In this document: in pieces, positions 1,448 to 46,187 of the stretch | How positions within the stretch are numbered: the first letter of the stretch is position 1 | How the letters are laid out: each line of letters begins with the position of its first letter | Source of the DNA: a virus | Length of the DNA stretch: 46,187 nt | Reading direction: 5' to 3' (one strand) | Virus record (IMG/VR): IMGVR_UViG_3300030334_000025 | The notes under the pieces: generated by a model | What the model saw: only the letters and a program-made list of their open reading frames with translations | Databases searched by the model: none | Told to the model about the DNA's origin: nothing | Made by a program: the position numbers and the translations under genes

Positions 1448-1448
1448 C

Positions 1449-8612: not shown

Positions 8613-8639
8613 GCTATTAACATTTTCTATGGTGATGAT

Positions 8640-11702: not shown

Positions 11703-11731
11703 CCACTACGGCGCAAGCCCGCGCCCCGCAT

Positions 11732-11742: not shown

Positions 11743-11795
11743 GTCAATACCCTAACTGAGCGCCCTGCGCGGGCGCTCTAAAGGAACCCAAACAA

Positions 11796-12508: not shown

Positions 12509-13035
12509 ACTGGAGAGATGTCGCAGAAACGGTGGCGAAAGCTGCGCCAGCTTTGGGCGGTGCTCTATACGGTGGCGCTGGTTACGCAGTTGGTAGCGGT
12601 ATCGCTAAGCTGTTGGGCGTTGAGGACAGTCCGGAGGCAGTTCAAGCCGCGCTACAGCAAGACCCGCAAGCCGCGCTAAAACTGCGTGAGCTAGAAGCTG
12701 AAATTGAGCGCGCACGAATTAACGCAGACCTAGATAGGCAGCGCATGGTCAATGAGACGATGCGCGTTGAAGCGCAGCAAGATGGGTGGTTTAAATCCGG
12801 CTGGAGGCCGGCACTTGGATGGGTATTTACGCTATCACTCGGCACGCTGGCAGGTTCAATGGCTTTTACTATCGTGAAAGACCCTACTGTTGTAAGTGAT
12901 GGCGAGTTTACAGGCATGCTGGTGTGGCTGTTCGTGACAATGGGCGCAGCGCTGGGGATTAACGTTAAGAAGCGTAGTGACGACAAGCAGGTAGGTGTGG
13001 CTCCAAGCTTTATTGACAGGGTGCTAAAACGATAG
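12505..13035 (+). CDS. Holin-like protein, 3TM GTA-type holin family
   Basis: ATGA overlap with the endolysin gene. It has a glycine-rich N-terminus, a coiled coil (ELEAEIERARINADLDRQR), then WRP and hydrophobic helices (ALGWVFTLSLGTLAG, LVWLFVTMGAALGI). Confidence 0.6.
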   Translation: MNWRDVAETVAKAAPALGGALYGGAGYAVGSGIAKLLGVEDSPEAVQAALQQDPQAALKLRELEAEIERARINADLDRQRMVNETMRVEAQQDGWFKSGWRPALGWVFTLSLGTLAGSMAFTIVKDPTVVSDGEFTGMLVWLFVTMGAALGINVKKRSDDKQVGVAPSFIDRVLKR

Positions 13036-13052
13036 AATTATTTTCTATTTGC

Positions 13053-13061
13053 TGCTACAAT
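13053..13061 (+). promoter_or_regulatory. Extended -10 promoter TGC-TACAAT upstream of the HNH gene
   Basis: TG-n-TACAAT lies 30 nt before ATG 13091, in an AT-rich spacer. Confidence 0.4.
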
Positions 13062-13090
13062 ATCCACCTAGGGATCTATAGGGGATTAAA

Positions 13091-13660
13091 ATGTGTAAAA
13101 TAGAAAATTGCTCAAATTCAGTTCATGTTAAAAAGCATAACCTTTGCCGCGCGCATTACCTCCGATGGAAAAAGTATGGCGATCCCCTGCATTTTCCTGA
13201 GCCCAGGAGAGGTAAGGATTCTTCAAGATATAAGCACGGAGCGTGGGGGGAAGAGCTTTTTAAAACATGGAGCCACATGATTGATAGGTGTCATAACCCA
13301 AAGTGCAAAGCATATAAACACTACGGAAAAAGAGGAATTCATGTTTGCGAATCTTGGCGAAATGACTTTTTTCAATTTAAGAAAGATATGGGCGAAAGGC
13401 CAGAAAACACTAGCATTGAAAGAATTGACAATAACAAGGGGTATAATCCACATAATTGCAAATGGGCAACCAGTGTGGAGCAAGGAAGAAATAGGCGATG
13501 CGTTAAGCTGACAAAAGAAAAAGCCGATGAAATGCGATCACTACCAAGAAGAGCAAAAAATGGCAGGGGGTCAGGTTACAGCCGTGAAGATATGGCTGAA
13601 AAATACGGCGTATCTGTAGCAACAGTAAAAAAAGTTCTTTCTGGTGCATATTGGAAGTAA
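13091..13660 (+). CDS. HNH-type homing-endonuclease-like DNA-binding protein
   Basis: N-terminal Cys/His cluster (CSNSVHVKKHNLCRAHYLRWKKYGDP) plus the ERIDNNKGYNPHNCKWAT...EQGRNRR motif typical of phage HNH/AP2-like genes. G+C is visibly low. Confidence 0.6.
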   Translation: MCKIENCSNSVHVKKHNLCRAHYLRWKKYGDPLHFPEPRRGKDSSRYKHGAWGEELFKTWSHMIDRCHNPKCKAYKHYGKRGIHVCESWRNDFFQFKKDMGERPENTSIERIDNNKGYNPHNCKWATSVEQGRNRRCVKLTKEKADEMRSLPRRAKNGRGSGYSREDMAEKYGVSVATVKKVLSGAYWK

Positions 13661-13754: not shown

Positions 13755-14117
13755 CTAGCACTTGGTAAACAAGGGCATGTCGTGCTTAACGCGGTATCGA
13801 TTCCACCGCATTATTCGTTCTGCTTCGGTCATTTCCTTCATTCTTCTTACCGCCTTAATCGCAGCCTTCTGACTAATGCCTGTCTGCTCCTCTACTTTCT
13901 TGTAAGACCTGCATGAAAGATATGAATACCAAATCGTTTCCCAGTCTACGTTAGGGCATTGGAACTTATCGGGTCGACTAAGCCCCATGCGGCGCGCGGC
14001 GCGCAATACTGTGCTGTCTGACTTATCGAGCTTTTCAGCTATCTGAATCAGTGTCCACGAGGGGTCTGGATACGTTTCACGTATAAACGCTAAGTCTGTT
14101 TCGTCTAGACTTCTCAT
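13755..14117 (-). CDS. Double helix-turn-helix DNA-binding protein with sigma region-4-like HTHs; candidate transcription regulator
   Basis: HTH-like segments WTLIQIAEKLDKSDSTVLRAARRMG and YKKVEEQTGISQKAAIKAVRRMKE. ATG 14117 with AGGGGTGG upstream is preferred over the track's TTG 14144. Confidence 0.55.
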   Translation of the reverse strand: MRSLDETDLAFIRETYPDPSWTLIQIAEKLDKSDSTVLRAARRMGLSRPDKFQCPNVDWETIWYSYLSCRSYKKVEEQTGISQKAAIKAVRRMKEMTEAERIMRWNRYRVKHDMPLFTKC

Positions 14118-14118
14118 A

Positions 14119-14334
14119 TCACCACCCCTGCTTAAACGTGCCAACGGGGATCACGCACGCATCATGCAGCGACATATCTTTGTACCGCATGCGTTGTTCA
14201 GCAGTTTTAATAGACACGACGCGCCCGGGGTAGTCCTTGATTTGCCGCTTGATAGACCGCGAGCCTGCGGCTATACACTGCTGGCGTTGCTGTTCGAATA
14301 TCTGTTGTTCGTATTTGCTCATTGCTAATAGCAT
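14119..14334 (-). CDS. Hypothetical protein, 71 aa
   Basis: AAGGAG lies 6 nt before ATG 14334. The track's longer N-terminus (to 14436) would run through a terminator hairpin. Confidence 0.6.
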   Translation of the reverse strand: MLLAMSKYEQQIFEQQRQQCIAAGSRSIKRQIKDYPGRVVSIKTAEQRMRYKDMSLHDACVIPVGTFKQGW

Positions 14335-16431: not shown

Positions 16432-16469
16432 TGCCTTTCTCCTTAATGCTTCGCTTTATGTATGAGATG

Positions 16470-16538
16470 ATATTAGAGGTTTTTAGGCTGAATTTATAAT
16501 TGTAATTCTCTATACGATTCGGTGATTCGTTAGGTTTT
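16470..16538 (-). promoter_or_regulatory. Box-promoter element copy E6 (AAAACCTA...GAATTACAATTATAA-N18-TAATAT)
   Basis: Read on the minus strand it aligns with E1-E5. The 18-nt spacer (16476-16493) separates the box (16494-16499) from TAATAT (16470-16475). It fills the gap between dut and the next gene. Confidence 0.55.
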
Positions 16539-16540
16539 GG

Positions 16541-16963
16541 CTATCGACCAGAGCTACCGAATCCACCCGCGCCGCGCTCAGTGTCGTCTAGCTCATCGAC
16601 CTCTACTGAGTCAGTCAGGCAATACGTCACCACAAGCTGCGCAATCCGGTCACCGGGACGGAACTCCACAACGTCTAGGCCGTGGTTAATCAGCGATACA
16701 TGTAGCTCGCCCCGGTAGTCAGCGTCGATGAACCCTGCCAACCGATCAATGCCGCGATTGGCTGCTAGCCCGCTGCGGGGCCATACCATCGCGCAGGTGC
16801 CATGCGGTAACGCCATGGCAATGCCCGTTGGCAATAACATCCGCTGCCCTGGCGGTAGGTCGACGCGCTCAGTGCAGTACAGGTCGAATCCACCACTGCC
16901 GTCAGTGGCGCGCGTTGGGATGGTGGCGTTTTTGGTTAGTCGTTTAAACTGAATGGCGCTCAT
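16541..16963 (-). CDS. dut: dUTP pyrophosphatase (dUTPase)
   Basis: Conserved dUTPase motifs: GSGGFDLY, PRSGLA, IDADYRGEL and C-terminal RGAGGFGSSG. Confidence 0.92.
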   Translation of the reverse strand: MSAIQFKRLTKNATIPTRATDGSGGFDLYCTERVDLPPGQRMLLPTGIAMALPHGTCAMVWPRSGLAANRGIDRLAGFIDADYRGELHVSLINHGLDVVEFRPGDRIAQLVVTYCLTDSVEVDELDDTERGAGGFGSSGR

Positions 16964-16972: not shown

Positions 16973-17134
16973 TCAATGAACAGTATCGGTCTTTTCATCA
17001 TCCTGCATCGGTACGGTATGGCCCAGCTCGTCAAGAAATGCAAGCACTTCTCCTGCATCGCCCTTTAGCTCGGTTGTGTCAGTAACCGCGCGGTCGTCAA
17101 TGCGCTGCGTTTTTGTGATTTTTACGGTAATCAT
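16973..17134 (-). CDS. Acidic hypothetical protein, 53 aa, absent from the ORF track
   Basis: ATGA overlap with the upstream gene (MITVKITKTQRIDD...). It ends 9 nt before the dut start. Confidence 0.5.
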   Translation of the reverse strand: MITVKITKTQRIDDRAVTDTTELKGDAGEVLAFLDELGHTVPMQDDEKTDTVH

Positions 17135-17469
17135 TTTCGCTTCCTCCGATTAACCCTATCAATCGTAGACTTGGCGGCCTCTTTTTGCCGAGCGCTGGCA
17201 CCAGTAGGGAACCGTATATCCCACTTTCGGCACCAGTGGCCTAGCGTGTCCTTTTTGATACCCCATTCACGCGCTAAGTCAGCGCAGGTATAGCCCGTTT
17301 GTGGTGCTGCTTTGGCTGCCGCTGCCAGTATTTCGCGCAACGGCTGGCCTTCCTGTTCTTCAATTGCCCGCATCCAGCGCGGGCAGTGTTTGGGTAGCGT
17401 GTGCGCCTGTTCGTGGTCGTAGCCAGCGGCTAGGCGTTTGTAGTATGTGCTTTGGTGCATGTTAGCCAC
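17131..17469 (-). CDS. Helix-turn-helix DNA-binding protein
   Basis: YTCADLAREWGIKKDTLGHWCRKW is HTH-like. The C-terminus is basic. It overlaps the 3' end of the SNF2 gene. Confidence 0.55.
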   Translation of the reverse strand: MANMHQSTYYKRLAAGYDHEQAHTLPKHCPRWMRAIEEQEGQPLREILAAAAKAAPQTGYTCADLAREWGIKKDTLGHWCRKWDIRFPTGASARQKEAAKSTIDRVNRRKRK

Positions 17470-18836: not shown

Positions 18837-19837
18837 ACCGCACCCCCGCCAAATAGGTCGTCTTGACCCTTGCCTGCTTGCTCAAGATTGCGCAGCGCTA
18901 GCTTGTAGTAGGACTCTTTCAGTTCGGCACCTATAAACTTGCGACCCATGCGGATGGATACATAGCCTTCGCTGCCAATACCCGCAAACGGACTCCATAC
19001 GGTATCGCCGGGCATTGACCATAGTTGCAGGCAGCGCTCAATAACACCCAACTGCAACGGGCAAATGTGGCGTTCATCGTCGCTGGCGCGACCTTCGCGG
19101 AAATTGAGCGTATCGCCTTGGTCAATATCCATCCATACCGGGCTGGCATATCGCTGCCAAATGTCAATAGGCGTGTTGTGGTCTGCGTGTGGCACGTAAG
19201 CGCAGCGGTTATCGTCATATTCAATTTGCTTGAATCCAGCGGGCGGCGCATCGCCAGTGTAGTGCGTCAACGCGCCTTCAATCGGCACTTCGTTTTGTCC
19301 GGGCTTGCGCATGATGACCATGGTGTCAGGGATACCTTGGCGGCTCATGCTGCTATCTTTCTTAATGGTCTTGTGAAGCAGTCCCATAGCTTTGGTGCGC
19401 TGCATTGCCGTTACAGGGTCTTTCCAAATGACGACTTCGGAATGATAGATAAACCCGGCATCTTGATAAGCGCGGATGATCTCGCCACGGAAGTCGCGGA
19501 TGCCAATGTAGCCGTCGTTCACTTTGCTGGTGGGCAGGTTCATGCAATGAATAGCTACCAAACGCCCCGGCATCATAACGCGGAACTGCTCGGCAATCAG
19601 ATATTGATATTGCTGCCAAAACTCGCTGCTGTTTTTGGCGTTGCCCATGTCGCGGTCGGAGTTGGAATATGTGAACAACGTCTCAAAAGGAGGACTAAAA
19701 CAGGAAAATCCAACGCTATCAGATGGTAAGTGCTGCGCCACTTCTACAGTATCAGCGTGGTACAGAGCGTACTGCTCTGTGATTTTTTGGTCTATTACTT
19801 TCATGTGCTTATCCAGTGGTGTCGTGTTGCGTCTCAA
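18833..19837 (-). CDS. DNA N6-adenine/N4-cytosine methyltransferase, beta-class motif order
   Basis: Catalytic SPPF (FSCFSPPFETL) precedes the AdoMet motif (VWSPFAGIGSEG). TTG 19837 has a GAGGTGG RBS. ATG 19804 is the alternative start if transcription begins at E5. Confidence 0.85.
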   Translation of the reverse strand: MRRNTTPLDKHMKVIDQKITEQYALYHADTVEVAQHLPSDSVGFSCFSPPFETLFTYSNSDRDMGNAKNSSEFWQQYQYLIAEQFRVMMPGRLVAIHCMNLPTSKVNDGYIGIRDFRGEIIRAYQDAGFIYHSEVVIWKDPVTAMQRTKAMGLLHKTIKKDSSMSRQGIPDTMVIMRKPGQNEVPIEGALTHYTGDAPPAGFKQIEYDDNRCAYVPHADHNTPIDIWQRYASPVWMDIDQGDTLNFREGRASDDERHICPLQLGVIERCLQLWSMPGDTVWSPFAGIGSEGYVSIRMGRKFIGAELKESYYKLALRNLEQAGKGQDDLFGGGAV

Positions 19838-19905
19838 ATACTGCCACCTCTAGCGCGGGGTGGCTAATTGATTTTGTTTATGGGTTATTGGATTTTGATA
19901 GTTAG
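19838..19905 (-). promoter_or_regulatory. Box-promoter element copy E5 (AACTATCA...AAAATCAATTAGCC-N18-CAGTAT)
   Basis: Minus-strand box ATTAGCC (plus strand 19862-19868), an 18-nt spacer, then CAGTAT (19838-19843). It fills the gap between ssb and the methyltransferase gene. Confidence 0.55.
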
Positions 19906-19907
19906 CA

Positions 19908-20312
19908 TCAAAACGGAATCGAGTCATCCATATCGCTAGCCGAAGACTGCGGCGCTGCCTGCTGCGGCTGACTCTGCGCCGCTGGTTGCGCATTTCCACC
20001 GCTTCCGCCTTCCTGCTTACCACCCACCAGATCAACGCTATTGCAACGCAACTGTAAGTACGTTTTTCCTTCATGCTCGCGTGTGGATAGTTCGCCGGAT
20101 ACCGCTACTTGTTGGCCTTTTTTCAGAAACTCAGGCAGCCGGGACTCTGCCTGTTTGCCCCATAGCGCACAGTCGAGCCATAGCGTTTGAGCGCGGTCGC
20201 CATAGCCTGACTTCATAGCAACGCTAAAATTGCATACAGTGGTGCCAGATACTTGGTTGATACGGCAATCGCTGCCCAGGTTGCCTGTGGCGCTTAGTAC
20301 ATTCATGCTCAA
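19908..20312 (-). CDS. ssb: Single-stranded DNA-binding protein
   Basis: OB-fold N-terminus, a G/Q/P-rich linker and the hallmark acidic tail DMDDSIPF. Confidence 0.9.
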   Translation of the reverse strand: MSMNVLSATGNLGSDCRINQVSGTTVCNFSVAMKSGYGDRAQTLWLDCALWGKQAESRLPEFLKKGQQVAVSGELSTREHEGKTYLQLRCNSVDLVGGKQEGGSGGNAQPAAQSQPQQAAPQSSASDMDDSIPF

Positions 20313-20972: not shown

Positions 20973-21827
20973 TTAGGTTAGCTCTTCGTCTAGCATATCC
21001 ATCATCACCCAGTCCGGCAGGCTGCAAATGTCGCTGTGCAAGCCGTAGGCGGGCCATTCGTTTTTATGCTCTGCCTCGGCATAGGCTAGCAGCGCCTCGC
21101 GGTATTCCTGGTGGCCTTTCATCTTCGCCATGTCATCAAGCGTGTACAGAACGTTGGCGCACGGCGGGTGCTCCTCAATGGCTAGGAACTGGTAGCTATC
21201 TAGCTGCGTACCCATGATTAGCTCAAAAATATGGCGATACATAGCCTCTTGCACGTAATAACGGTATGCAAACACGCTGCGACTGAACGCGCGCTGTCGG
21301 CAATCCTGCGTTTTCTTAACGTCGATAACGCGCTGCGTGTCGGTGATCCAGTCATAACGGCAGCGTAGCAATACGCCAGTTTCGGGGTCTTCAGCAAACG
21401 CCGATAGCTCTGCATGGCCGGGTTCGCTGAGGATGGCGTTCGCGTCTGGATTGTTGCGCACGGATTCTACCATCACGTCAACAGATGCGCCTTCGTTGTC
21501 AGTCAGCGTGGCATGGTCTCCATAGATTTTTTTGGCCTGCTGGTATTCATACTTGCGGCGGTCATTTATGCCCTTAATGGTCATGTATTCAGATGCGTAG
21601 CGTTCCGGCTCAAGTAATGCCGTGTGAAACGCGGTGCCAATATCCATCGCTCGCGTGGATTTAAAACCGCTACGGTAGGCGTAGTGTGCCGGGCTGCGTG
21701 CGACCAGTGACAGGCCGCTGTTGCTGATGCCTGGATATTGGTGGTAGGCGGCGTTCGGCATGTTGCGCACAAAGACGCCCCGGCGTGCTAGCTCTGGCGT
21801 TAGGTCTGAGTAGTTGATGATGTGCAT
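20973..21827 (-). CDS. PD-(D/E)XK family exonuclease, RecE/DUF3799-like
   Basis: N-terminal NAAYHQYPGISNSGL and a core RYDW...IDVKKT (D...D/ExK). It sits next to SSB. Confidence 0.7.
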   Translation of the reverse strand: MHIINYSDLTPELARRGVFVRNMPNAAYHQYPGISNSGLSLVARSPAHYAYRSGFKSTRAMDIGTAFHTALLEPERYASEYMTIKGINDRRKYEYQQAKKIYGDHATLTDNEGASVDVMVESVRNNPDANAILSEPGHAELSAFAEDPETGVLLRCRYDWITDTQRVIDVKKTQDCRQRAFSRSVFAYRYYVQEAMYRHIFELIMGTQLDSYQFLAIEEHPPCANVLYTLDDMAKMKGHQEYREALLAYAEAEHKNEWPAYGLHSDICSLPDWVMMDMLDEELT

Positions 21828-22021
21828 TATTTATCCCACTCCAAATCTACAATAGCGTTGTTGATTTCATTTATCTGGTCATTGATATAGTCAAGCAATC
21901 CACTAGATTCATCCTGTGTCATTGATAATTCTTGATGCGTTGCTTTGTCCGCAATACAGCGCTCAAGAATGTTAGAAATATCTTCTAGTTCTTCAAGCAG
22001 GCTTAGTATGCGTTGCTTCAT
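21827..22021 (-). CDS. Acidic coiled-coil hypothetical protein, 64 aa; first gene of the leftward arm
   Basis: AAGGAG lies 6 nt before ATG 22021 (MKQRILSLLEELEDI...). The track's 175-aa version extends across the promoter region and the opposing Cro-like gene. Confidence 0.6.
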   Translation of the reverse strand: MKQRILSLLEELEDISNILERCIADKATHQELSMTQDESSGLLDYINDQINEINNAIVDLEWDK

Positions 22022-22051
22022 GCTGCTCTCCTTTGCCATGTGTTTTATCGG

Positions 22052-22081
22052 TTGACGCCCACAAACTATAGGGGCTACACT
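22052..22081 (+). promoter_or_regulatory. Rightward early promoter: TTGACG-18-TACACT, interdigitated with the leftward promoter
   Basis: TTGACG at 22052-22057 and TACACT at 22076-22081. Each promoter's -10 lies inside the other's spacer. Confidence 0.65.
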
Positions 22082-22093
22082 TTGCGATGTCAA
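22065..22093 (-). promoter_or_regulatory. Leftward early promoter: TTGACA-17-TATAGT
   Basis: On the minus strand, TTGACA is at 22093-22088 and TATAGT at 22070-22065, with an exact 17-nt spacer. This is a near-consensus sigma70 promoter. Confidence 0.75.
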
Positions 22094-22115
22094 ACACAAA
22101 ATTGGAGCGCAACAA

Positions 22116-22295
22116 ATGAAGCTAATCGACCAGTTAGTTACCCGTATGCAGGGAAAAAACCTATCTGAAATTGCCCGCCGTGCCCATGTGGCGCGTGACC
22201 ATGTGACGGATATTGCCGCCGGGCGCGTGCATAACATGAAGGTGGTGACGTATGAAAAGCTGAGTGCTGCGCTGGATGAAATGGAGGCGCGGTAA
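22116..22295 (+). CDS. Cro/XRE-like helix-turn-helix regulator, 59 aa, absent from the ORF track
   Basis: GGAG lies 8 nt before the ATG. The HTH is NLSEIARRAHVARDHVTDIAAGR. It is the first gene of the rightward early arm. Confidence 0.7.
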   Translation: MKLIDQLVTRMQGKNLSEIARRAHVARDHVTDIAAGRVHNMKVVTYEKLSAALDEMEAR

Positions 22296-22297
22296 GA

Positions 22298-23794
22298 ATG
22301 AAAAACTTCACCCTTTTTGAGGATCAAAACGAGTTTGTTGATAACCTTCGTCATGCTTTGCGCGAGGGGTTCAGGTCAATACTTGGTGTTGCGTCACCTG
22401 CCTTTGGCAAGACTGTTGTGGCGGGATACATAACCTCTGAGGCCAAGAAAAAAACAGGCGGTAGCGTTTGGTTTTTGGTGCATCGAAAAAACCTGCTGCG
22501 CCAAACAAGCCAGAGCTTTTGGAAAGCTGGCATTGAGCACGGTTTAATTACCAGCGGCAAGCGCAGAAGCGAGCTACCTGTTCAGGTCGGCACCATTGGC
22601 ACCGTGCATTCGCGCTACGCTAGCATGAAGGCACCAACGATATTGTTTATTGACGAGGCGCACCTGGGTAAGGGCCGGATGTTTGAGACGGTTATCACAT
22701 GGGCAATTGAGCAAGGCTCAATAGTCATAGGTTTAACTGGCACCCCTCAGCGCCTAGATGGTAAGCCACTCGATATTTTCCAAAAAATGATTGAGGCAAA
22801 ATCAACGCGATGGCTGATAGATCAAGGCCGTTTGTCAAGATATGAAATTTACAGCACTCCCAACCTGCCGGACATTTCAACCGTCAGGAAGTCAGGCGGC
22901 GATTTAAACCGTGAAGACTTGGCAGCGGTAATGGATACCAAGACCATCGTTGGTGACGCCATCGGTCACTGGCGAAAATATGCCAACGGCATGATAACTG
23001 TCTGCTACTGCGTGAATGTTGCGCACAGCAAGCATACAGCGGCAGCTTTCAATGCGGCGGGCATAGCTGCCGTACACGTTGACGCCGACACCACCACAGC
23101 CGAGCTAAAAGATGCATGCGAAGGGCTTGCAGACGGTCGCTACAAAACCCTGTGTAACTGCGAATTGGTAATTGAAGGTTTCGACCTCAGTGCGCAAGTG
23201 GGCAGGGACATTACTCTAGAGTGTTGCATACTGCTCAGGCCTACTGAATCATTAGCGCGCTATCTGCAAATGGTGTTCAGGGCACTACGAAAAAAGAACC
23301 GCCCCGCCGTTATCCTTGACCATGCTGGATGTGTATGGAAGCACGGACTACCCGACGACGACCGCGAATGGAGCCTAGAAGGCCGCAAAAAAGGCAAGCG
23401 CAAAAAAGACGAAGACGAACAGCCAGATTTACAAATTCAACAGTGCATGAATTGTTACCACGTATTCAAAGCGGGGCCGGATTGTTGCCCATCGTGTGGC
23501 GAGCCACTACCACGCAAAGCACGCGCAGAAATTGAAGTGGTCGACGGCGAACTAGAAAAAATCGACGTGGCGCAAATTCGCCGGGAGCGCAAACGGGAAC
23601 AGGGGCAGGCGCGCACGTTGCGGGAGCTGATAGAGTTGGGATTGCGGCGCGGCATGAATAAGCCCTCGCAGTGGGCAGCTATCACGCTGTCAGCCAGGGC
23701 AGGACGCAAGCCCACGGCGAAGGATTTTGCCGAGGCTAAGCGTGTGATGCTGGAGATTCAACAGGGTGGTAGTAGTGAAGAGGAGGCGTTTTGA
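22298..23794 (+). CDS. DEAD/DEAH-box SF2 helicase with a C-terminal zinc ribbon
   Basis: Motif I SPAFGKT, motif II IDEAH, motif III TGTPQR. The zinc ribbon is CMNCYHVFKAGPDCCPSCGE. Confidence 0.85.
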   Translation: MKNFTLFEDQNEFVDNLRHALREGFRSILGVASPAFGKTVVAGYITSEAKKKTGGSVWFLVHRKNLLRQTSQSFWKAGIEHGLITSGKRRSELPVQVGTIGTVHSRYASMKAPTILFIDEAHLGKGRMFETVITWAIEQGSIVIGLTGTPQRLDGKPLDIFQKMIEAKSTRWLIDQGRLSRYEIYSTPNLPDISTVRKSGGDLNREDLAAVMDTKTIVGDAIGHWRKYANGMITVCYCVNVAHSKHTAAAFNAAGIAAVHVDADTTTAELKDACEGLADGRYKTLCNCELVIEGFDLSAQVGRDITLECCILLRPTESLARYLQMVFRALRKKNRPAVILDHAGCVWKHGLPDDDREWSLEGRKKGKRKKDEDEQPDLQIQQCMNCYHVFKAGPDCCPSCGEPLPRKARAEIEVVDGELEKIDVAQIRRERKREQGQARTLRELIELGLRRGMNKPSQWAAITLSARAGRKPTAKDFAEAKRVMLEIQQGGSSEEEAF

Positions 23795-27132: not shown

Positions 27133-27153
27133 AGTGGTGGGAAATGCAAGATT

Positions 27154-27176
27154 AGCGCCCAAATGGGCGCTTTTTT
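27154..27176 (+). terminator. Intrinsic terminator ending the replication arm
   Basis: Stem AGCGCCC/GGGCGCT, loop AAAT, then T6. Confidence 0.85.
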
Positions 27177-27185
27177 ATGCCTAGC

Positions 27186-27469
27186 CGTTACGTTTCTGTA
27201 CCGCTGTAACGGTGCGTACCGGTCAAAAATCCAGTTTTTGTGATAAATATCAATAACTTATACAACCGTTACGTTTGTTACGGTACGCGGCAATAGATAG
27301 ACCTATAGAGATAGAGACTCATAGGTCAGCATGACAATATCTACCCCTCTCTATTAAATTAAATCTTTTTTAGTTATTTTTGTTATTATTGTCACATAGC
27401 TTTGATTTTACTGGATTTTTTAGCGGTACAAGTTTAATTAGGAGCGTAACGTCTGTAACGGGCGTAACG
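27186..27469. repeat. Module A: AT-rich core bounded by oppositely oriented CGTAACG heptamer arrays; paralog of 39181-39481
   Basis: Heptamers lie at 27186, 27206, 27267, 27277 (left) and 27445, 27455, 27463 (right), with 9-bp spacing. It shares the exact 17-mer CCGTTACGTTTGTTACG and the 19-mer GGTACAAGTTTAATTAGGA with module B. Confidence 0.85.
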
Positions 27470-27510
27470 ATAGCGGGGCATGGCTAGCCGGGCGCGGTTC
27501 AGTAATAGCA

Positions 27511-27579
27511 AAAACCTACCAACACCAACCACCACATAAAAATTACTCATTAGCCACCACGCCACGGCGGGTTCATACT
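27511..27579 (+). promoter_or_regulatory. Box-promoter element copy E1 (AAAACCTACCA...AAAAATTACTCATTAGCC-N18-CATACT)
   Basis: Box at 27549-27555, 18-nt GC-rich spacer, CATACT at 27574-27579. It lies 30 nt before ATG 27609, which has a GGAGGAGG RBS. Confidence 0.55.
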
Positions 27580-27608
27580 TTGGGTATCACAACGGAGGAG
27601 GTCAGGGC

Positions 27609-27971
27609 ATGAGCACAGGAATCGGACGGCATAAGTTTGTAGGTGGTGACGAATACGCTCGCAGTGCGTACAGCACGCCGAAGGCAATATGCCCTTACTG
27701 TGGCTATGACGGCTGCGAAGCAGATTATGTAGATGTTGGTGTTGGTATGGTTCAGTGTGGCCCGTATTACTGCACAGAATGCCACGCTAGCGAAGCCAGC
27801 TATTTGGATACAAGAGAGCTTTCAAACCAAGAAAAAGAAACAGGCTGGTATGAGCCGGAGTCCCCGGTAAGCGAAAACGCCAATACGGTAGGCGGGATGC
27901 TGGTAGATCATAAAACAGCTAAGGCTATGTACGTTAATGGCCTACTTGACAGTAAGGAGTTAAACCTATGA
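27609..27971 (+). CDS. Zinc-ribbon hypothetical protein, 120 aa
   Basis: CPYCGYDGC...CGPYYCTEC cysteine pairs. Strong RBS. Confidence 0.7.
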   Translation: MSTGIGRHKFVGGDEYARSAYSTPKAICPYCGYDGCEADYVDVGVGMVQCGPYYCTECHASEASYLDTRELSNQEKETGWYEPESPVSENANTVGGMLVDHKTAKAMYVNGLLDSKELNL

Positions 27972-29381: not shown

Positions 29382-29584
29382 CCACCAGAACCTTCACCCT
29401 GATATACGGCAAAACCCGCGACACGATGACGGATGATCTAACGTTTGAAACGCTCGCACGGGCAAAAGTGGCGTACTACGCCATGACGATGAATAACTAT
29501 TGCGCGTTGCAGCGGGACGGGTATACGCTGATGAGTAATATTAACGAGGGGCCGGTATCGGCTAATTTGGGAGGCAATAGATGA
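29378..29584 (+). CDS. Hypothetical protein, 68 aa
   Basis: ATGA-coupled. Confidence 0.55.
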   Translation: MTTRTFTLIYGKTRDTMTDDLTFETLARAKVAYYAMTMNNYCALQRDGYTLMSNINEGPVSANLGGNR

Positions 29585-29802
29585 ATAGCGAAAAACGAGC
29601 AGCATTACTCGAGTATCTGGCCGGAACCTGCAACAGCCTGGATGATGCCGTTGATGAACTCGGCGTCGATTACGCAGAAGCCTGCGAAGTTTTAGCAGAG
29701 GAAGAGCTACAGATTTGCGAGACTTGCGGCTGGTGGAGCGAGACCTCAGAAATGGAGATCATTGATGACGAATACGTTTGCCATGATTGCTTGGCGCAAT
29801 GA
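29581..29802 (+). CDS. Acidic hypothetical protein with a CxxC...CxxC motif, 73 aa
   Basis: ICETCGWW...YVCHDC. ATGA-coupled, and the last gene before the terminator. Confidence 0.6.
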   Translation: MNSEKRAALLEYLAGTCNSLDDAVDELGVDYAEACEVLAEEELQICETCGWWSETSEMEIIDDEYVCHDCLAQ

Positions 29803-30595: not shown

Positions 30596-30621
30596 AAGCC
30601 ACTGCACAGGTGGCTTTTTTT
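30596..30621 (+). terminator. Intrinsic terminator between terS and the GIY-YIG gene
   Basis: Stem AAGCCAC/GTGGCTT, a 7-nt loop and T7 running directly into ATG 30622. Confidence 0.7.
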
Positions 30622-31335
30622 ATGAAAAAAACATACGAAGTCTATGTAATAACGAACAGCAAGAACGGCAAGAAATATGTCGGAGTGACAACTCGCGGCT
30701 ACCAAAACAGGTTTGCAAATCACTTATGGCATTCTCGCAAAAATAGCGGCAATTGCTCGGCCCTTTATTCTGCCATCCGCAAGCATGGTGCTAACTGCTT
30801 TTCGGTTGAGCTAGTTGAGCAATGTTCAAGCTTCGAGGAAATGAACTCGAGAGAGCGCTATTGGATAAAGTCATTTAATACTATGTCGCCATCTGGATAC
30901 AATCTGACAGACGGTGGAGACGCTGGCGTATTCGTTGAATCGACAAGGATGAAGATGTCTCAAAGACTGAAAGGGTTGCCCATGTCTGAAAAAAACAAAG
31001 AGGGACTGAGGAACGCATGGTCAAACCCTGAGGTTCGTGCTAGTCGAATTGAAAAAATAAAAGAAGCAATGGCAAGGCCGGAGGTAAGAGAGGCTACTGG
31101 TGCAAGGCAGCGAGGAGTTAAAAAAACGCCGGAGCACGTCGCGTCTCTTAGAAAGGCAAGGGCTAGGAAGGTAACCTGCGTAGACACAGGTGAGCAGTTT
31201 GAAGCAATAGCAGACGCTGTACAGTGGGTTAGGTCGCAAGGCAAATACCCGAAAGCTAACCATTCAAAAATAATCCGGGCAACAAAAAGAGAAGATTACA
31301 CAGCATACGGATACAGGTGGAAGCTGTCATGTTGA
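30622..31335 (+). CDS. GIY-YIG homing endonuclease with NUMOD3-like repeats
   Basis: YEVYVITNSKNGKKYVGVT (GIY...YIG variant), RFANH, ERYWI, YNLTDGG. Repeated SEKNKEGLRNAW and TPEHVASLRKA motifs. G+C is low. It lies between terS and terL. Confidence 0.85.
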   Translation: MKKTYEVYVITNSKNGKKYVGVTTRGYQNRFANHLWHSRKNSGNCSALYSAIRKHGANCFSVELVEQCSSFEEMNSRERYWIKSFNTMSPSGYNLTDGGDAGVFVESTRMKMSQRLKGLPMSEKNKEGLRNAWSNPEVRASRIEKIKEAMARPEVREATGARQRGVKKTPEHVASLRKARARKVTCVDTGEQFEAIADAVQWVRSQGKYPKANHSKIIRATKREDYTAYGYRWKLSC

Positions 31336-32726
31336 GCGCTGATGATATTGCAGAATGCAGGTCTGACCTTTTGGCATACACTAAGGTTATGTTTAAAGCC
31401 AGGAAGGGGGCAAATTTAAAGCATAATTGGCACCAAGATGCTATATGCTCAGCATTGGAGAAGGTTGTTATTGGAAAGACCAAGCGGTTAATAATCAATA
31501 TACCGCCAAGGTCTGGAAAGACAGAGTTAGCCGTCATTAATTTTATAGCTTGGTGTATGGGGAATTTTCCTGATAGCGAATTTATTCATGCTAGCTATTC
31601 AAAAAGGCTGGCAACAAATAACACCTATAATGTTCGTTCAATCATGCAGCACGAAATGCATGCCAATATATTTGGCAGGCCTGCATTTCAAAACGACTCT
31701 AATGCGAAAGACGAATTTAGAACTATGGAGGGCGGGGTTGTTTACGCCACTGGTGCGGAAGGGAGCATAACTGGCTTTGGAGCGGGTAAAATGCGCGACC
31801 ACTTTGGCGGGGCAATCATAATTGACGATCCGCACAAAGCCGGGGAAGGCAATAGTGACACGATGCGCCAAAACGTGCTGGACTGGTTTAGCACAACAAT
31901 GGAAAGCCGGAAAAACAGCCCGGACACACCTATCATCGTTATCATGCAGCGGCTGCATGAAGAGGATTTATCCGGGTACTTGCTTAACGGCGGTAATGGC
32001 GAGCATTGGGAGCACTTGAACATTCCCGCTATCAATGATGCGGATACGTCATTCTGGCCTGAGCAGTTCCCGTTAGAGGACTTGCGCCGCATGGAAAGCT
32101 CAGACGCCTATCGCTTCGCAGGGCAATATATGCAGCGCCCGGCACCGATTGGCGGCGGCATATTCAAAGATGCTTGGTGGCAGTATTATCAACGCCTACC
32201 GCAAATGGAGTGGCGCGGCATATACGCAGACACGGCTCAAAAGACAAAAGAGCATAACGACTACAGCGTTTTTCAGTGCTGGGGTAAGTCAAAATCCGGC
32301 CAAGCGTATCTAATTGATATGATCCGAGGCAAATGGGAAGCCCCTGAGCTGTTAACGCATGCCCGTGCATTCTGGAATAAGCACAATGCAGTTCGTGATG
32401 CTGGCTTTTTACGGTCAATGAAGGTTGAGGACAAGGTTTCAGGCACCGGGCTAATACAAACGCTAAAACGCGAAGGCGTGCCAGTGGTGGATATACAGCG
32501 AGACCGCGACAAAATTACCAGGGCGATGGATGCGGCCCCGTTGGTGCAGTCCGGAAATGTGTACTTGCCGCAAGATGCCCCGTGGCTGTCTGAGCTTTTG
32601 GCAGAAACCAGCTCCTTCCCCAATGCCAAGCACGATGACACGGTTGACCCAATGATGGATGCGCTGTCAGATATGTTAGGCGGCAACGTGAGCGGCCCTG
32701 CTGTATTGCTCAAGAAACGTCGTTAG
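31329..32726 (+). CDS. terL: Terminase large subunit
   Basis: Walker A-like PPRSGKT, Walker B IIIDDPHK, and a nuclease domain with YADTAQKTKEHNDYSVFQCWG. AGGTGG lies 8 nt before ATG 31329, inside the 3' end of the homing-endonuclease gene. Confidence 0.9.
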   Translation: MLSADDIAECRSDLLAYTKVMFKARKGANLKHNWHQDAICSALEKVVIGKTKRLIINIPPRSGKTELAVINFIAWCMGNFPDSEFIHASYSKRLATNNTYNVRSIMQHEMHANIFGRPAFQNDSNAKDEFRTMEGGVVYATGAEGSITGFGAGKMRDHFGGAIIIDDPHKAGEGNSDTMRQNVLDWFSTTMESRKNSPDTPIIVIMQRLHEEDLSGYLLNGGNGEHWEHLNIPAINDADTSFWPEQFPLEDLRRMESSDAYRFAGQYMQRPAPIGGGIFKDAWWQYYQRLPQMEWRGIYADTAQKTKEHNDYSVFQCWGKSKSGQAYLIDMIRGKWEAPELLTHARAFWNKHNAVRDAGFLRSMKVEDKVSGTGLIQTLKREGVPVVDIQRDRDKITRAMDAAPLVQSGNVYLPQDAPWLSELLAETSSFPNAKHDDTVDPMMDALSDMLGGNVSGPAVLLKKRR

Positions 32727-32728
32727 GT

Positions 32729-32798
32729 AAAACCTATCACCACCACGCCACACCATTAGAAATTACAATTAGCCACCCTGCCATCGGTGGTTTATTGT
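32729..32798 (+). promoter_or_regulatory. Box-promoter element copy E2 (AAAACCTATCACCACCACGCCACACCATTAGAAATTACAATTAGCC-N18-TATTGT)
   Basis: It starts 3 nt after the terL stop. Box at 32768-32774, 18-nt spacer with CCACC/GGTGG, TATTGT at 32793-32798, 35 nt before ATG 32833. Confidence 0.55.
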
Positions 32799-32832
32799 TT
32801 GGGGTGTCAGTAAACAACAGGAGCAAACAACC

Positions 32833-33870: not shown

Positions 33871-33917
33871 CACCACAGCGCGATAAATACCAAGCCGCTC
33901 AAAAGGGCGGCATTGAG
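33871..33917 (+). promoter_or_regulatory. Degenerate seventh copy of the box element
   Basis: CACCACAGCGCGATAAATACCAAGCC-N15-ATTGAG aligns with the left half of E3, but the box and spacing are decayed. Confidence 0.25.
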
Positions 33918-36308: not shown

Positions 36309-37206
36309 ATACCCCACCCTGCCCCGAAACACAGAGAACCCAGTGGGGCACGCCCGCCTGCAACAACAGACCGTGAGCCGCTTAAAACGCGGCTTGCGCG
36401 ACGTTCGCCGATGGGTGCTAGAGCGTTTTGAGGAGATACCAAAGCGTGAGATCACGATTAACGCTCAAGTGCCGGGCTATGTGGTCAACGAAACGCGCTA
36501 CGAATACCTAATTAGCGTGGAGGAGCTGCGACTTATTGTTGAGGAGATTCGCCGTCGCCTGGGCATCGAGGTGCCACCGGATTATATGGCCGCGCAAACG
36601 GTGCTAGCGTATGAAGCAGGCACCGGAACCGCCGTGGCACAGTTAGCGGCGCTGACGGATGACTATACGCGGGAGATAACGCAGGTCTTGGCGTCGGAGC
36701 CGTGGCAGCGGCGGGTGGCGTTGATTCGTTCGCGGGTGTTCGAGCAGATGGACTCATTCAACGGCGATACGGCTACGGAGCTGGGGCGTGTGCTTAGCCA
36801 GGGCGTTGAGGATGGGCTGAATCCGCGTACGGTGGCGAAGGATATACGGGCGCGGTTTAAGGTTAGCGAGAGCAGAGCAGAGCGTATCGCTAGGACTGAG
36901 GTGACTTCAGCGCTGCGCAGAGCTGCACGAGACGAGAATCAAGACGCACAAGAGCGCTTAGGCATTCGCACGGCTATGTTGTGGTACAGCGCATTACTGC
37001 CGAGCACACGCCAAAGCCACGCTTCCAAACATGGGCGCACATTCAGTGCGCAGGAGGTTGCGGAGTTTTATAGCCAGGGGGGTGAATCGATAAATTGCCG
37101 CTGCTCGCAGCAAAGCGTACTCCTAGACGAATCAGGCCAGCCCATCCTTGGCCCGCTAAAAGAACGCATGCAAAAACAGCGCGCCGCGTTTGAGCCTGAT
37201 AGCTAA
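36301..37206 (+). CDS. Head morphogenesis / minor capsid protein, SPP1 gp7 / Mu F-like
   Basis: ERIARTEVTSALRRA...RQSHASKHG...INCRCS fits the Mu F family pattern. It lies downstream of the portal gene. Confidence 0.85.
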   Translation: MPKYPTLPRNTENPVGHARLQQQTVSRLKRGLRDVRRWVLERFEEIPKREITINAQVPGYVVNETRYEYLISVEELRLIVEEIRRRLGIEVPPDYMAAQTVLAYEAGTGTAVAQLAALTDDYTREITQVLASEPWQRRVALIRSRVFEQMDSFNGDTATELGRVLSQGVEDGLNPRTVAKDIRARFKVSESRAERIARTEVTSALRRAARDENQDAQERLGIRTAMLWYSALLPSTRQSHASKHGRTFSAQEVAEFYSQGGESINCRCSQQSVLLDESGQPILGPLKERMQKQRAAFEPDS

Positions 37207-37273
37207 CCCCTATCATCCACCGCTACACGATAAAAAAATACCATTAGCCCCGGCAGCCGCTGGGGTTTATTGT
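37205..37273 (+). promoter_or_regulatory. Box-promoter element copy E3 (AACCCCTATCATCCACCGCTACACGATAAAAAAATACCATTAGCC-N18-TATTGT)
   Basis: Box at 37243-37249. The spacer hairpin CCCCGGC/GCTGGGG has the same stem as the capsid terminator at 42211. TATTGT at 37268-37273 lies 24 nt before ATG 37297. Confidence 0.55.
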
Positions 37274-37296
37274 TGATGTATAACTAGAGAGGAGGG

Positions 37297-39111: not shown

Positions 39112-39136
39112 ACCCGCCACCTCGGCGGGTTTTTTT
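39112..39136 (+). terminator. Intrinsic terminator closing cassette C3
   Basis: Stem ACCCGCC/GGCGGGT, loop ACCTC, then T7. Confidence 0.85.
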
Positions 39137-39137
39137 G

Positions 39138-39148
39138 TGTGCTGAAAT
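39138..39148 (+). promoter_or_regulatory. Weak family member TGTGC-TGAAAT fused to the terminator T-run
   Basis: TRTGn is present, but the hexamer has G at position 2. Confidence 0.3.
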
Positions 39149-39180
39149 ATGCACAGCTTGCGCTTACGTCAACGGCCAAT

Positions 39181-39481
39181 CGTTACGTTTTAAAAGTGCG
39201 TAACGCCACAAAATAGCCAGCGTAACGCGCAACTTGTTGTTTTAATTAAAAAATTACAGCCGTTACGTTTGTTACGATGTTTTGCGAACGATAGTCACAT
39301 ATACATAAACACTGATAGGCACTTAGATAGACATACCTCTCTATATATATATCTATTTTCTGTAATTATTGTTATATATGTCACAAGCCTTTGAATCCAT
39401 TGGATTTTTCACCGGTACAAGTTTAATTAGGACTGTAACGCTTGTAACGTCTGTAACGGCACACTGTTTTTCGTCGTAACG
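39181..39481. repeat. Module B: AT-rich core bounded by oppositely oriented CGTAACG heptamer arrays; paralog of 27186-27469
   Basis: Heptamers lie at 39181, 39199, 39221, 39261, 39271 (left) and 39435, 39444, 39453, 39475 (right). It carries the same 17-mer (39260-39276) and 19-mer (39414-39432) as module A. Confidence 0.85.
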
Positions 39482-39533
39482 CCACCTTGATGAGCCGCCA
39501 ACCCGTGGGCACGCACGACATGGTTGAGCCACT

Positions 39534-39563
39534 TTGCACGCACCGATAGCCTTGTGCTATACT
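39534..39563 (+). promoter_or_regulatory. Promoter TTGCAC-18-(TGTGC)TATACT for the head operon
   Basis: It has both a -35-like hexamer and a TRTGn extended -10, 28 nt before ATG 39591. Confidence 0.55.
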
Positions 39564-39590
39564 GCGAGCAGATTCTAATAGGGCTAATTC

Positions 39591-43743: not shown

Positions 43744-43769
43744 GACCGCCCTCCTGGCGGTCTTTTTTT
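43744..43769 (+). terminator. Intrinsic terminator
   Basis: Stem GACCGCC/GGCGGTC, loop CTCCT, then T7. Confidence 0.85.
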
Positions 43770-43785: not shown

Positions 43786-43897
43786 AGATACGGCAGACCG
43801 CCATAAGGAGGTTGATCCTATCTGATAATGGGTTGCGCGTCGTGAGACGGTGATCGCAACACTAGACGCCCCGGCACCTACCGGGGCGTTGCCGTTT
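43786..43897 (+). ncRNA. Candidate small non-coding transcript or structured leader
   Basis: About 110 nt between the promoter at 43769 and the 9-bp GC hairpin ACGCCCCGG/CCGGGGCGT (43866-43889). It has no plausible ORF and contains AAGGAGG between inverted repeats ATCAGATA/TATCTGAT. Confidence 0.3.
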
Positions 43898-43906
43898 ATA
43901 GGTGGT

Positions 43907-43973
43907 GGCTATCGAGTGGCGTGAGTCGATAGAAAAATACCATTAGCGGGGAGGTGGTGGGGTGGGCTATTGT
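43907..43973 (+). promoter_or_regulatory. Box-promoter element copy E4 (CTATCGA...TCGATAGAAAAATACCATTAGCG-N19-TATTGT)
   Basis: Box at 43942-43948, G-rich 19-nt spacer, TATTGT at 43968-43973, 29 nt before ATG 44002, which has a GAGGAG RBS. Confidence 0.5.
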
Positions 43974-44001
43974 TTGGGGATACCGGCGAGGAGAATGAAC
44001 C

Positions 44002-45865: not shown

Positions 45866-46187
45866 ATGGCGACTCTTAACGCGCAGCAAACTGTAGTGAC
45901 CGGATTAAACCCTACCTATGCAGCCGCAGACGTAGCAGGTGATGAATTTGACGCAGGCAATGGCGTGTTTTTGCATGTCGTCAACGATGACGTCAGCCCA
46001 CACACCGCGACAGTGGTATCTACGTTTAACGCAGAGCCGGGCATCGCGCCGACTAACGTAGACGTAACCATTCCGGCGGGCGAGTCGCGCATGATTGGCC
46101 CGTTTAGCGGCGTGTTTACCGCGAAAGGCACGATGCCCGTCAGTGTCACCTATGACGCTGTTGCCAGCATCACCGTGGCCGTCATCA
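45866..46187 (+). CDS. Conserved structural-module protein, 109 aa in total; continues at 100-107 after the junction
   Basis: GGAGG lies 7 nt before ATG 45866. The ORF is open to the window end and is absent from the track because it has no stop inside the window end. Confidence 0.7.
   Translation, partial: MATLNAQQTVVTGLNPTYAAADVAGDEFDAGNGVFLHVVNDDVSPHTATVVSTFNAEPGIAPTNVDVTIPAGESRMIGPFSGVFTAKGTMPVSVTYDAVASITVAVI
46089..46187. repeat. Terminal duplication identical to 1-99
   Basis: Exact 99-nt match to the window start. Confidence 0.95.

Follow-up and report, generated by a model that had tools for sequence, protein, structure and literature searches.

A repeated intergenic element with features of both a promoter and a terminator in the genome of an uncultured marine phage

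Introduction

Why would a phage place the same short intergenic sequence before six unrelated genes? The question is raised by IMG/VR virus record IMGVR_UViG_3300030334_000025, a phage sequence of 46,187 nucleotides (nt; here called the window, i.e., the whole stretch of DNA that was analysed). A preliminary description of the window had noted an element of about 70 nt in six to seven copies, and had proposed that it represents a phage-specific class of promoters, laid out like the MotA-dependent middle promoters of phage T4. Here we describe the element as a cassette of about 90 nt with six copies (E1 to E6), and argue that it is probably a composite of promoter and terminator that punctuates long operons. 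It would be specific to one clade and similar to the promoter-early stem-loops (PeSLs) of T4-like phages, with the stem-loop nested inside the promoter. The copies, their geometry, the pattern of conservation, the hairpins and the mosaic context are observed, and from these we infer both the promoter and the terminator activity.

Results

Six copies with a common layout

Two profile hidden Markov models (HMMs), one made from the six window copies and a second from 40 unique copies, recover exactly six copies of the element in the window (nhmmer), all of them intergenic and co-oriented with the flanking genes (Table 1). The next-best match in the window (E 0.34) is E4 on the opposite strand. 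A copy is therefore present at all six places named in the preliminary description; the motifs are those listed there, but the element is longer by about 12 nt on its 5' side, where it begins with an ATAG motif. As neither HMM detects the "decayed copy" at 33871-33917 (E > 50), we no longer count it: it shares only GATAAATACCA..AGCC and a hairpin with the element, and has GAGGAG, a Shine-Dalgarno sequence, at the place of the hexamer.

Anchored on the box, the copies can be described without gaps as (G)ATAG-N7-CTATC-N14 (16 in E2)-(C/G/T)ATA(G/A)-A/T-rich-TAC-N-ATTAGCC-18 nt (19 in E4)-hexamer-23-38 nt-start codon. The order of box, 18-19 nt, hexamer and start codon had been noted before and is seen in all six copies. 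Four elements begin at the stop codon of the upstream gene, which is overlapped by the left ATAG in E2, E5 and E6 and comes 2 nt later in E3. The box itself is ATTAGCC in E1, E2, E3 and E5, ATTAGCG in E4 and ATTATAA in E6.

Promoter-like geometry

No homologue of an RNA polymerase or sigma factor was found when 61 of the approximately 66 open reading frames (ORFs) were scanned against PHROGs or Pfam, so that the genome must be transcribed by the host polymerase. That this polymerase reads TTGACA/TATAAT-type signals follows from the consensus-like promoters elsewhere in the genome: two near-consensus sigma-70 promoters stand face-to-face at 22052-22093 (TTGACA-17-TATAGT leftward and TTGACG-18-TACACT rightward), in what is probably the early control region. 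The pair lies between the leftward operon and a 59-amino-acid Cro-like helix-turn-helix gene (22116-22295). The six elements form a class distinct from these early promoters. The -35-like part of their box has just TT in common with the consensus.

The distance between box and hexamer is 18 nt in E1, E2, E3, E5 and E6, as well as in the divergent copies of related loci (L numbers) L052, L138, L130, L146 and L180 (two copies), with unrelated spacer sequences. At this fixed position, paralogues and relatives carry TATTGT, CATACT, CAGTAT, TAATAT, TATGCT, TATAGT, GATAAT or CATTAT; a ninth hexamer, TATAAT, is found only at L164, an uncertain locus that we do not count as evidence. Across the nine hexamers positions 1, 3, 4 and 5 vary, whereas A2 and T6 are invariant, and the relatives concerned include some whose neighbouring helicase is down to 70% identical at the protein level. 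A2 and T6 are the most conserved positions of the sigma-70 -10 element. Numbering the hexamer as -12 to -7 puts the box at -37 to -31; an A-tract then occupies about -50 to -42, and a CTATC/GATAG dyad is centred close to -58. The A-tract (ATAAAAATTAC, GATAAAAAAATACC or TATAGAGAATTAC, directly 5' of the box in all copies) is at the position expected of an UP element, a purine is found about 7 nt past the hexamer, and a Shine-Dalgarno sequence (GGAG-type) and start codon follow within less than 40 nt. The fixed 18-nt spacing, the invariant A2 and T6, the A-tract and the nearby Shine-Dalgarno sequence and start codon together give comparative support to the earlier suggestion that the elements are promoters.

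The box had been described as highly conserved in spite of a poor match to TTGACA. The poor match stands, but the conservation has to be qualified: ATT is its only universal part (variants among paralogues and relatives are ATTATAA, ATTTTAA, ATTATAC, ATTGGCC and ATTAGTC), and the GCC half is the base of a hairpin. Copies that lack a hairpin (E6, L180_2598, L182 and L146) nevertheless retain the box-18-hexamer geometry, which is therefore not a product of the hairpin.

Table 1. Positions of the six cassettes, their motifs and the associated hairpins in the window.
Feature	Coordinates	Strand	Details
E1, whole cassette	27505..27590	+	nhmmer E 6e-16
E1, parts	ATAG 27505-27508; CTACC 27516-27520; A-tract 27536-27548; box ATTAGCC 27549-27555; hexamer CATACT 27574-27579; start codon 27609	+	18-nt spacer
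E1, spacer hairpin (weak)	27556..27572	+	centroid -7.2 kcal/mol, z -0.24
E2, whole cassette (focal copy)	32722..32808	+	nhmmer E 1.4e-24
E2, parts	TerL stop TAG 32724-32726 within GTTAG; CTATC 32733-32737; box 32768-32774; hexamer TATTGT 32793-32798; start codon 32833	+	
E2, spacer hairpin AGCCACC..GGTGGTT, then TATTGTTTGG	32771..32792	+	terminator scan; -9.6 kcal/mol, z -0.30
E3, whole cassette	37199..37284	+	nhmmer E 2.4e-24
E3, parts	ATAG-N7-CTAT 37199-37213; head-morphogenesis gene stop TAA 37204-37206; GATAA and A-tract ~37229-37242; box 37243-37249; hexamer TATTGT 37268-37273; start codon 37297	+	
E3, spacer hairpin, 9 pairs, loop AGCC, then UAUUGUUG	37246..37267	+	terminator scan; -15.8 kcal/mol, z -2.66
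E4, whole cassette	43898..43984	+	nhmmer E 1.3e-15
E4, parts	ATAG-N7-CTAT 43898-43912; perfect dyad CTATCGA-N10-TCGATAG 43909-43932; box ATTAGCG 43942-43948; hexamer TATTGT 43968-43973; start codon 44002	+	19-nt G-rich spacer
E4, upstream hairpin, 10-bp G+C, then UGCCGUUUAU	43865..43890	+	-23 kcal/mol over 43855-43905, z -3.15
E5, whole cassette	19828..19917	-	nhmmer E 5e-11
E5, parts	SSB stop TGA 19910-19908; CTATC 19901-19897; box 19868-19862; hexamer CAGTAT 19843-19838; start ATG ~19804	-	
E5, spacer hairpin GCCACC..GGUGGC, poor U-tract AGUAUUUGAG	19843..19864	-	-12.4 kcal/mol, z -2.0
E6, whole cassette	16460..16550	-	nhmmer E 2.7e-6
E6, parts	dUTPase stop TAG 16543-16541 within GATAG; CTAAC; TATAG; box ATTATAA 16500-16494; hexamer TAATAT 16475-16470; start codon 16431	-	AT-rich 18-nt spacer

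Hairpins and terminator-like features

The spacer had been considered conserved in length and not in sequence; this is correct for the length (18-19 nt), but in most copies (E1, E2, E3 and E5) the spacer is a hairpin. The G+C hairpin is found in E3, E5, E2 and, weakly, in E1. Its 5' arm starts with the (A)GCC of the box and the U-tract that follows overlaps the hexamer (tail UUUAUUGUUU). The hairpin register differs among families, with the 5' arm always beginning in the box. E2-type and E3-type copies pair in one register, with 90.7% paired cells vs 75% for shuffles and 25-65% with a slid partner, and between E3 and E2 three pairs are changed on both sides. The stem of E5 (GCCACC/GGUGGC) is unrelated to that of the L052 orthologue, located after the SSB gene (AUUAGCCCUC/GAGGGCUAAU), while the layout is kept, and further independent stems in other registers occur in L138, L130 and L180. 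Relatives may fold more stably than the window copies: E2 orthologues have a sixth G-C pair (-14.0 kcal/mol vs -9.6 kcal/mol for E2 of the window), and relatives with a G for T at 27573 reach -10.3 kcal/mol. That hairpins evolved independently and end in the U-rich -10 region suggests that incoming transcripts are, in addition, terminated or attenuated at most copies. A lengthening of the hairpin by pairing of the A-tract with the U-tract was considered, but received no support from the folds.

Copies without a hairpin mostly lack the GCC of the box (ATTATAA in E6, ATTTTAA in L180, ATTATAC in L182); the exceptions are E4 (ATTAGCG) and L164 (ATTAGCT), which have no spacer hairpin and retain AGC. 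In E4 the spacer is without hairpin (z +0.92), and a stem-loop is found 8 nt 5' of the element, its stem being invariant in five of five E4 orthologues; E6 has no hairpin. A stem-loop is thus associated with five of the six copies, and lies inside the promoter in four. The gap of 320 nt before E4 contains three stem-loops, including a canonical terminator at 43744-43762. A second hairpin, at 43831-43857 and 5' of the E4 hairpin, shows compensatory changes among relatives (UUGCGCG..CGCAA vs GCACGGCG..CCGUG or GUGCGGCG..CCGCA).

Could the elements be intrinsic terminators or attenuators and nothing else, with the hexamer as U-tract, the A-tract for bidirectionality and no initiation? The terminator scan picks out both E2 and E3, an A-tract and a T-tract border the hairpin on its two sides, the E5 hairpin is also scored as terminator-like on the + strand, and, as noted, four elements abut a stop codon. 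The preliminary description had held that its reading would be refuted if the elements proved to be 3'-end signals, and with E2 and E3 this is partly the case. We take this to mean that the element is best read as a promoter and a terminator combined. Against termination alone, the copies without a hairpin (E6, L180_2598 and L182) and those without a spacer hairpin (E4 and L164) all keep the box, the 18-19-nt spacing and nAnnnT; TATAGT, GATAAT and TAATAT are examples of hexamers that do not form a U-tract; and the 45 nt that are conserved 5' of the hairpin have no role in termination. Moreover, the genome has ordinary terminators with T5-7 runs elsewhere (27154, 39111, 42207, 42743, 43744 and 44868 in the terminator scan), and E1 and E4 are each downstream of one, at approximately 350 and 150 nt, respectively. 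Elements that only terminate are, therefore, unlikely.

The hairpins could also act at the level of RNA, if the element were a cis-acting site in read-through transcripts that serves for Rho loading (rut), for processing or for antitermination of the put/nut type. In line with this, C exceeds G in the 60 nt upstream of the box in five of the six copies (e.g. 19 C vs 8 G in E1 and 14 vs 6 in E5), and the hairpin is strand-specific in E3 and L138, where the sense strand folds better as a result of G-U pairs (in E3 by 6 kcal/mol over the antisense strand). The E4 family, however, has the opposite composition (10 C vs 22 G), which is conserved in five relatives. Unlike boxB or put, neither sequence nor loop of the hairpin is conserved between families, and Rfam searches with the window, L052 and L164 gave no family at the gathering threshold. 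In addition, little read-through RNA would reach E1 and E4, since both are located behind strong terminators. Taken together, these points make an RNA-level element very improbable. All three variable segments of E4 and its orthologues (L048, L056, L093, L118 and L147) are G-rich.

Upstream dyads and the search for a regulator

The region upstream of the A-tract contains half-sites with conserved spacing. CTATC-N14/15-ATAG occurs five times (0.35 expected) and ATAG-N7-CTAT has four exact occurrences (0.42 expected). The latter motif is also present at 8584-8598, before the tail-fibre gene (8640), and at 39546-39560, before the scaffold-capsid operon (39591), where it adjoins the extended -10-like sequences TGcTAGAAT and TGcTATACT, respectively; these sites may represent a shared operator of a putative regulator. 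The CTATC..GATAG dyad is imperfect in E1, E2 and E5. In E4 this segment appears inverted, as its reverse complement has CACGCCAC or ACGCCACAC in common with E2, while the fixed motifs keep their orientation.

These observations raise the possibility of an activator-dependent class of phage promoters, in which a phage factor binds the box and/or the ATAG/CTAT dyads and recruits or re-targets the host RNA polymerase, so that the six genes would form one middle or late regulon (compare T4 MotA, Mu Mor/C and P2 Ogr). A -35 region that is weak and yet conserved, unlike that of the consensus early promoters, would fit such a class, as would the spacing of the half-sites, their recurrence before the tail-fibre gene and the scaffold operon, and the conservation of the inverted module in E4, as expected for a symmetric binding site on duplex DNA. 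Candidate regulators are present in the form of small helix-turn-helix-like ORFs (13755-14144, 17131-17469 and 22116-22295). However, their matches are below the curated cut-offs, and the protein encoded at 13755-14144, with only sub-threshold helix-turn-helix and sigma-r4 matches, has two homologues in 5.8 billion proteins. Among the ORFs scanned, none matches the MotA, AsiA, Mor/C, Ogr, TraR or sigma families, although remote homologues are possible. The GCC half of the box goes along with the hairpin and not with a separate contact, and the left ATAG of E2, E5 and E6 coincides with the stop codon of the upstream gene. We therefore regard an activator-dependent class as possible but doubtful.

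Two small Cys4 ORFs (27609-27971 and 29581-29802) do not match any family in these scans, and the 73-amino-acid CxxC-x17-CxxC protein encoded by the second does not match DksA/TraR. Two further interpretations of motifs in the element were discarded: an IHF site at TATCAA, as the TTR half of the consensus is missing in every copy (by eye), and a Chi-like function of GGTGGTGG/CCACCAC, as the genome has 43 occurrences of TGGTGG, a sequence not specific to the elements.

Distribution among relatives and mosaicism

The element was found in 52 fetched loci, from IMG/VR, Tara and other metagenome contigs, that belong to one narrow clade. The nearest cultured phages by the large terminase subunit (TerL) are Pseudomonas phage MR14 (72% amino acid identity) and Yersinia phage fEV-1; the element is missing from both, as well as from IMG/VR contigs with a TerL of 73% identity or less. 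A megablast search with 10 kb did not match any GenBank phage, and blastn of E3 returned only matches of 30-34 nt at chance level, in P1/P7-like phages (E >= 0.06). Six pattern matches on genome contigs, in unrelated taxa, are taken as chance: tblastn with the window proteins found no homology at the five loci tested (L173-L177), the sixth being the Helicobacteraceae locus L178. The metagenome matches L142-144, L160, L164, L166 and L169 are treated in the same way, and the perfect TATAAT at the right distance in L164 is not regarded as evidence.

Within the clade, conservation peaks at the elements. Orthologous copies show 84-97% identity, whereas the value is 40-90% for the 200 nt on the 5' side, and the 200 nt on the 3' side often align no better than random sequence. 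Different genes follow the same element in different relatives: at least nine after E3-type, at least five after E4-type and several after E2-type elements. E6 is nearly identical in L179. BLAST blocks end at the 3' edges of E3 and E4 (37273/37274 and 43979-43984), at the 5' edge of E2 (32729) and at the A-tract of E1 (27536). Specifically, homology ends at 37273/37274 in L002, L051, L053, L058 and L088, that with L051 starts at 32729 and that with L004 and L053 at 27536. Chimeric copies are found in L146, L167 and L179, and those of L167 and L146 join the left half of one family to the right half of another. In L180 (IMGVR_UViG_3300027580_000137, 2186-5130) the dUTPase gene is upstream of a methyltransferase-helicase module that is flanked by two elements, whereas in the window it is downstream of the helicase gene (the L180 helicase is 78% identical at the amino acid level); gene order is shuffled around the elements in L180.

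Such a pattern could reflect a DNA-level linker that is neutral for transcription, i.e., a conserved stretch of homology, or a site for a protein of recombination or packaging, that is kept because it mediates the exchange of modules. This would be in agreement with the conservation islands amid unrelated flanks, the breakpoints at element edges and the A-tract, the chimeric copies and the shuffled gene order, and with the presence of phage genes for SSB and for proteins resembling exonuclease VIII and a Holliday-junction resolvase. Breakpoints do fall in the elements more often than expected across the sequence (10 of 144 distinct breakpoints vs 2.5 expected, p 2.6e-4), but they are not significantly enriched relative to other intergenic DNA (8 of 33 vs 4.9 expected, p 0.10, where n=33 has low power), so that a role as recombination linker is only suggestive. 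Co-orientation with the genes, a fixed distance to nAnnnT and 23-38 nt to a start codon with its Shine-Dalgarno sequence are traits of expression signals and are needless for a homology patch. We consider it quite improbable that the element is a transcription-neutral linker. For the promoter-terminator cassette, in turn, a role in evolution is suggested: the same sequence of about 90 nt before unrelated genes could serve as a homology patch for swapping the following genes among related phages, and the phage has its own exonuclease VIII-like protein and SSB.

Genomic context of the elements

The first and last 99 nt of the window are identical (1-99 and 46089-46187), indicating a complete genome of about 46,088 bp that is circularly closed or terminally redundant. 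The G+C content is 53%, and no T4-like genes were found in this 46-kb non-T4 phage. Rightward genes for tail and lysis (108-13660) are followed by leftward genes for recombination and replication (22354-13755), including those for the exonuclease VIII-like protein, SSB, a DNA methyltransferase, a helicase and dUTPase. From 22116 the genes are rightward again, and encode a helicase, a primase, small ORFs, TerS, a GIY-YIG endonuclease, TerL, portal, head-morphogenesis, scaffold, decoration and capsid proteins. The gene for the GIY-YIG homing endonuclease (30610-31335; phrog_314, E 8e-41) is placed between those for TerS and TerL, and Pseudomonas phage MR14 likewise has an endonuclease gene immediately ahead of TerL. 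The true start of the long ORF 21827-22354 is probably downstream of the listed one.

E1 forms the 3' end of one of two paralogous long intergenic regions (27133-27608 and 39135-39590), of which the cores (27261-27469 and 39255-39458) are 72-78% identical. These regions contain six and eight copies, respectively, of GTAACG/CGTTAC hexamers around an AT-rich centre, with three GTAACG-type hexamers in tandem at a 9-nt period at 27446-27469 and 39435-39458. GTAACG is found 37 times in the window (19.4 expected), and the arrays are kept in relatives. The resemblance of the arrays to iterons makes the regions candidates for a replication origin or for a regulator array. Another family of repeats, of about 32 nt and 69-75% identical, is located at 8599-8630, 13017-13048 and 21957-21988 and has ATAGAA..TTCTAT dyads; two of its copies are intergenic before late genes, and one of these two adjoins TTGACA-17-AATTAT (13013-13041).

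Discussion

A probable composite of promoter and terminator

The fixed geometry, the invariant A2 and T6, the A-tract, the short leader and the persistence of all these in copies that lack a hairpin argue for a promoter, and the hairpins for an additional role in termination. We consider this composite more likely than each of the three alternatives discussed above, namely terminators only, a transcription-neutral linker and an RNA-level element.

On this basis, host RNA polymerase would read a weak promoter of the sigma-70 type, in which TTA(GCC), at about -36 to -31, would be the -35-like part, followed by a spacer of 18 bp and by nAnnnT as -10, while the A-tract at about -50 to -42 would take the place of an UP element. 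The ATAG/CTAT half-sites (ATAG-N7-CTATC-N14-ATAG, with the dyad centre at about -58) probably bind a dimeric protein, and the promoter may therefore need help. Transcription would start about 7 nt past the hexamer and yield a leader of 16-31 nt with a Shine-Dalgarno sequence. In E2, E3 and, weakly, E1 and E5, RNA that reads into the element is predicted to fold into the G+C hairpin, with the GCC of the box as its 5' arm and the T-rich -10 region as its U-rich tail. Incoming transcripts would thus be terminated or attenuated where new ones begin, in a stop-and-restart before mostly accessory genes. The hairpin of E4 would do so from just 5' of the promoter part, and E6, without a hairpin, would be a plain internal promoter.

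Several observations weigh against this model. As a sigma-70 promoter the element is weak: the -35 matches the consensus at three of six positions and the -10 at three to four (three in E5), the spacer is 18 instead of 17, there is no extended -10, and the elements fail a 9-of-12 scan for the sigma-70 consensus. As terminators, E1 and E5 have poor U-tracts, the hairpins of E1 and E2 in the window are no stabler than shuffles (z -0.24 and -0.30), and the covariation rests essentially on two lineages (E2 vs E3) and one orthologue pair. The flipped strand composition of E4, G-rich where the others are C/A-rich, is not accounted for by the model, and the excess of breakpoints over other intergenic DNA is, as described above, not significant. 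Finally, the elements are found in the replication operon as well as in structural operons, before replication-type and structural/accessory genes alike, so that no single kinetic class is obviously defined; this holds equally against a regulon under one activator.

A bolder proposal, which we put forward only tentatively and as improbable at present, combines these elements of function: the copies would be operators and promoters of a phage-specific regulon, in which a putative dimeric phage protein on the ATAG/CTAT dyads activates a feeble promoter and the nested hairpin couples the release of polymerase to re-initiation. The result would be a portable stop-and-restart unit that also acts as a homology patch for accessory genes among marine phages.

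If the promoter-terminator cassette is confirmed, composite units that insulate and mobilise accessory genes would not be peculiar to T4-like myoviruses, but would represent a more general route to modular phage genomes. The cassette would be unusually compact, with a terminator stem built on the -35 box and a U-tract provided by the -10. It would mark the sites of variable "cargo" genes in an uncultured clade of marine phages, could provide a short portable unit of expression and insulation for phage engineering, and its upstream dyad motif could lead to the transcription regulator of the clade.

Comparison with known systems

Accessory genes with their own promoter and terminator, inserted between conserved genes, are known as morons in mosaic lambdoid phages. 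The boundary sequences of these phages are similar to our elements in that short conserved intergenic sequences are located at mosaic junctions. They differ in that there is no single repeated cassette of about 90 nt per genome, whereas here one cassette precedes six unrelated genes.

The late promoters of P2, 186 and P4 (Ogr/B/Delta) and of Mu (Mor, C) have a poor -35 and a dyad symmetry centred at about -55. Both aspects are shared by the element, with its poor -35 and CTATC-N14-GATAG centred at about -58. The half-site sequences are different (TGT-N12-ACA in P2), and no Ogr-like or Mor/C-like protein was detected among the ORFs scanned here.

The MotA box of T4 middle promoters, (a/t)(a/t)TGCTT(t/c)A, has its centre at about -30, 11-13 bp from the -10. 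Similar to the element, these promoters combine a sigma-70 -10 with a conserved box other than TTGACA, and they form a class apart from the consensus early promoters of the same phage. In contrast, the box ATTAGCC is 18 bp from the hexamer, the normal position of a -35, half of it is a hairpin arm, and TGCTT is present in no copy of the element. The parallel drawn in the preliminary description thus fails on the sequence of the box, on its spacing and on the MotA/AsiA searches described above.

The closest described system is the PeSL of T4-like phages (Arbiol et al., 2010, PMC2839356; Comeau et al., 2014, PMC4122927). In a PeSL, an early sigma-70 promoter with AT-rich DNA on its 5' side is combined with a neighbouring stem-loop terminator, and PeSLs are located at the boundaries of insertions and deletions (PMC2839356, PMC4122927), with the stem-loop just 5' of the promoter (PMC4122927, legend to Figure 3); PmSLs are known in phage nt-1 (PMC4122927). 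The cassette, known from sequence alone, shows no similarity to the published PeSL consensus. Its stem-loop lies between the -35-like box and the -10 in four copies, whereas that of PeSLs is 5' of the -35, which is one of their defining features and an order found only in E4, and in the nested copies the U-tract overlaps the -10. The -35 (TTAGCC) is far from the consensus, the spacer is 18 nt (19 in E4) instead of about 17, and an additional conserved module of 40 nt with the ATAG/CTAT dyads is present upstream. Moreover, the host genome is that of a non-T4 phage of 46 kb, with copies in the structural-gene region as well. Despite these differences, both are repeated intergenic composites of a sigma-70-type promoter (a predicted one in the cassette), an AT-rich upstream region and a stem-loop that would terminate incoming transcripts, and both end in a Shine-Dalgarno sequence with its start codon; both have degraded or half copies; and both precede variable genes, mostly of unknown function, at the boundaries of insertions or replacements among close relatives.

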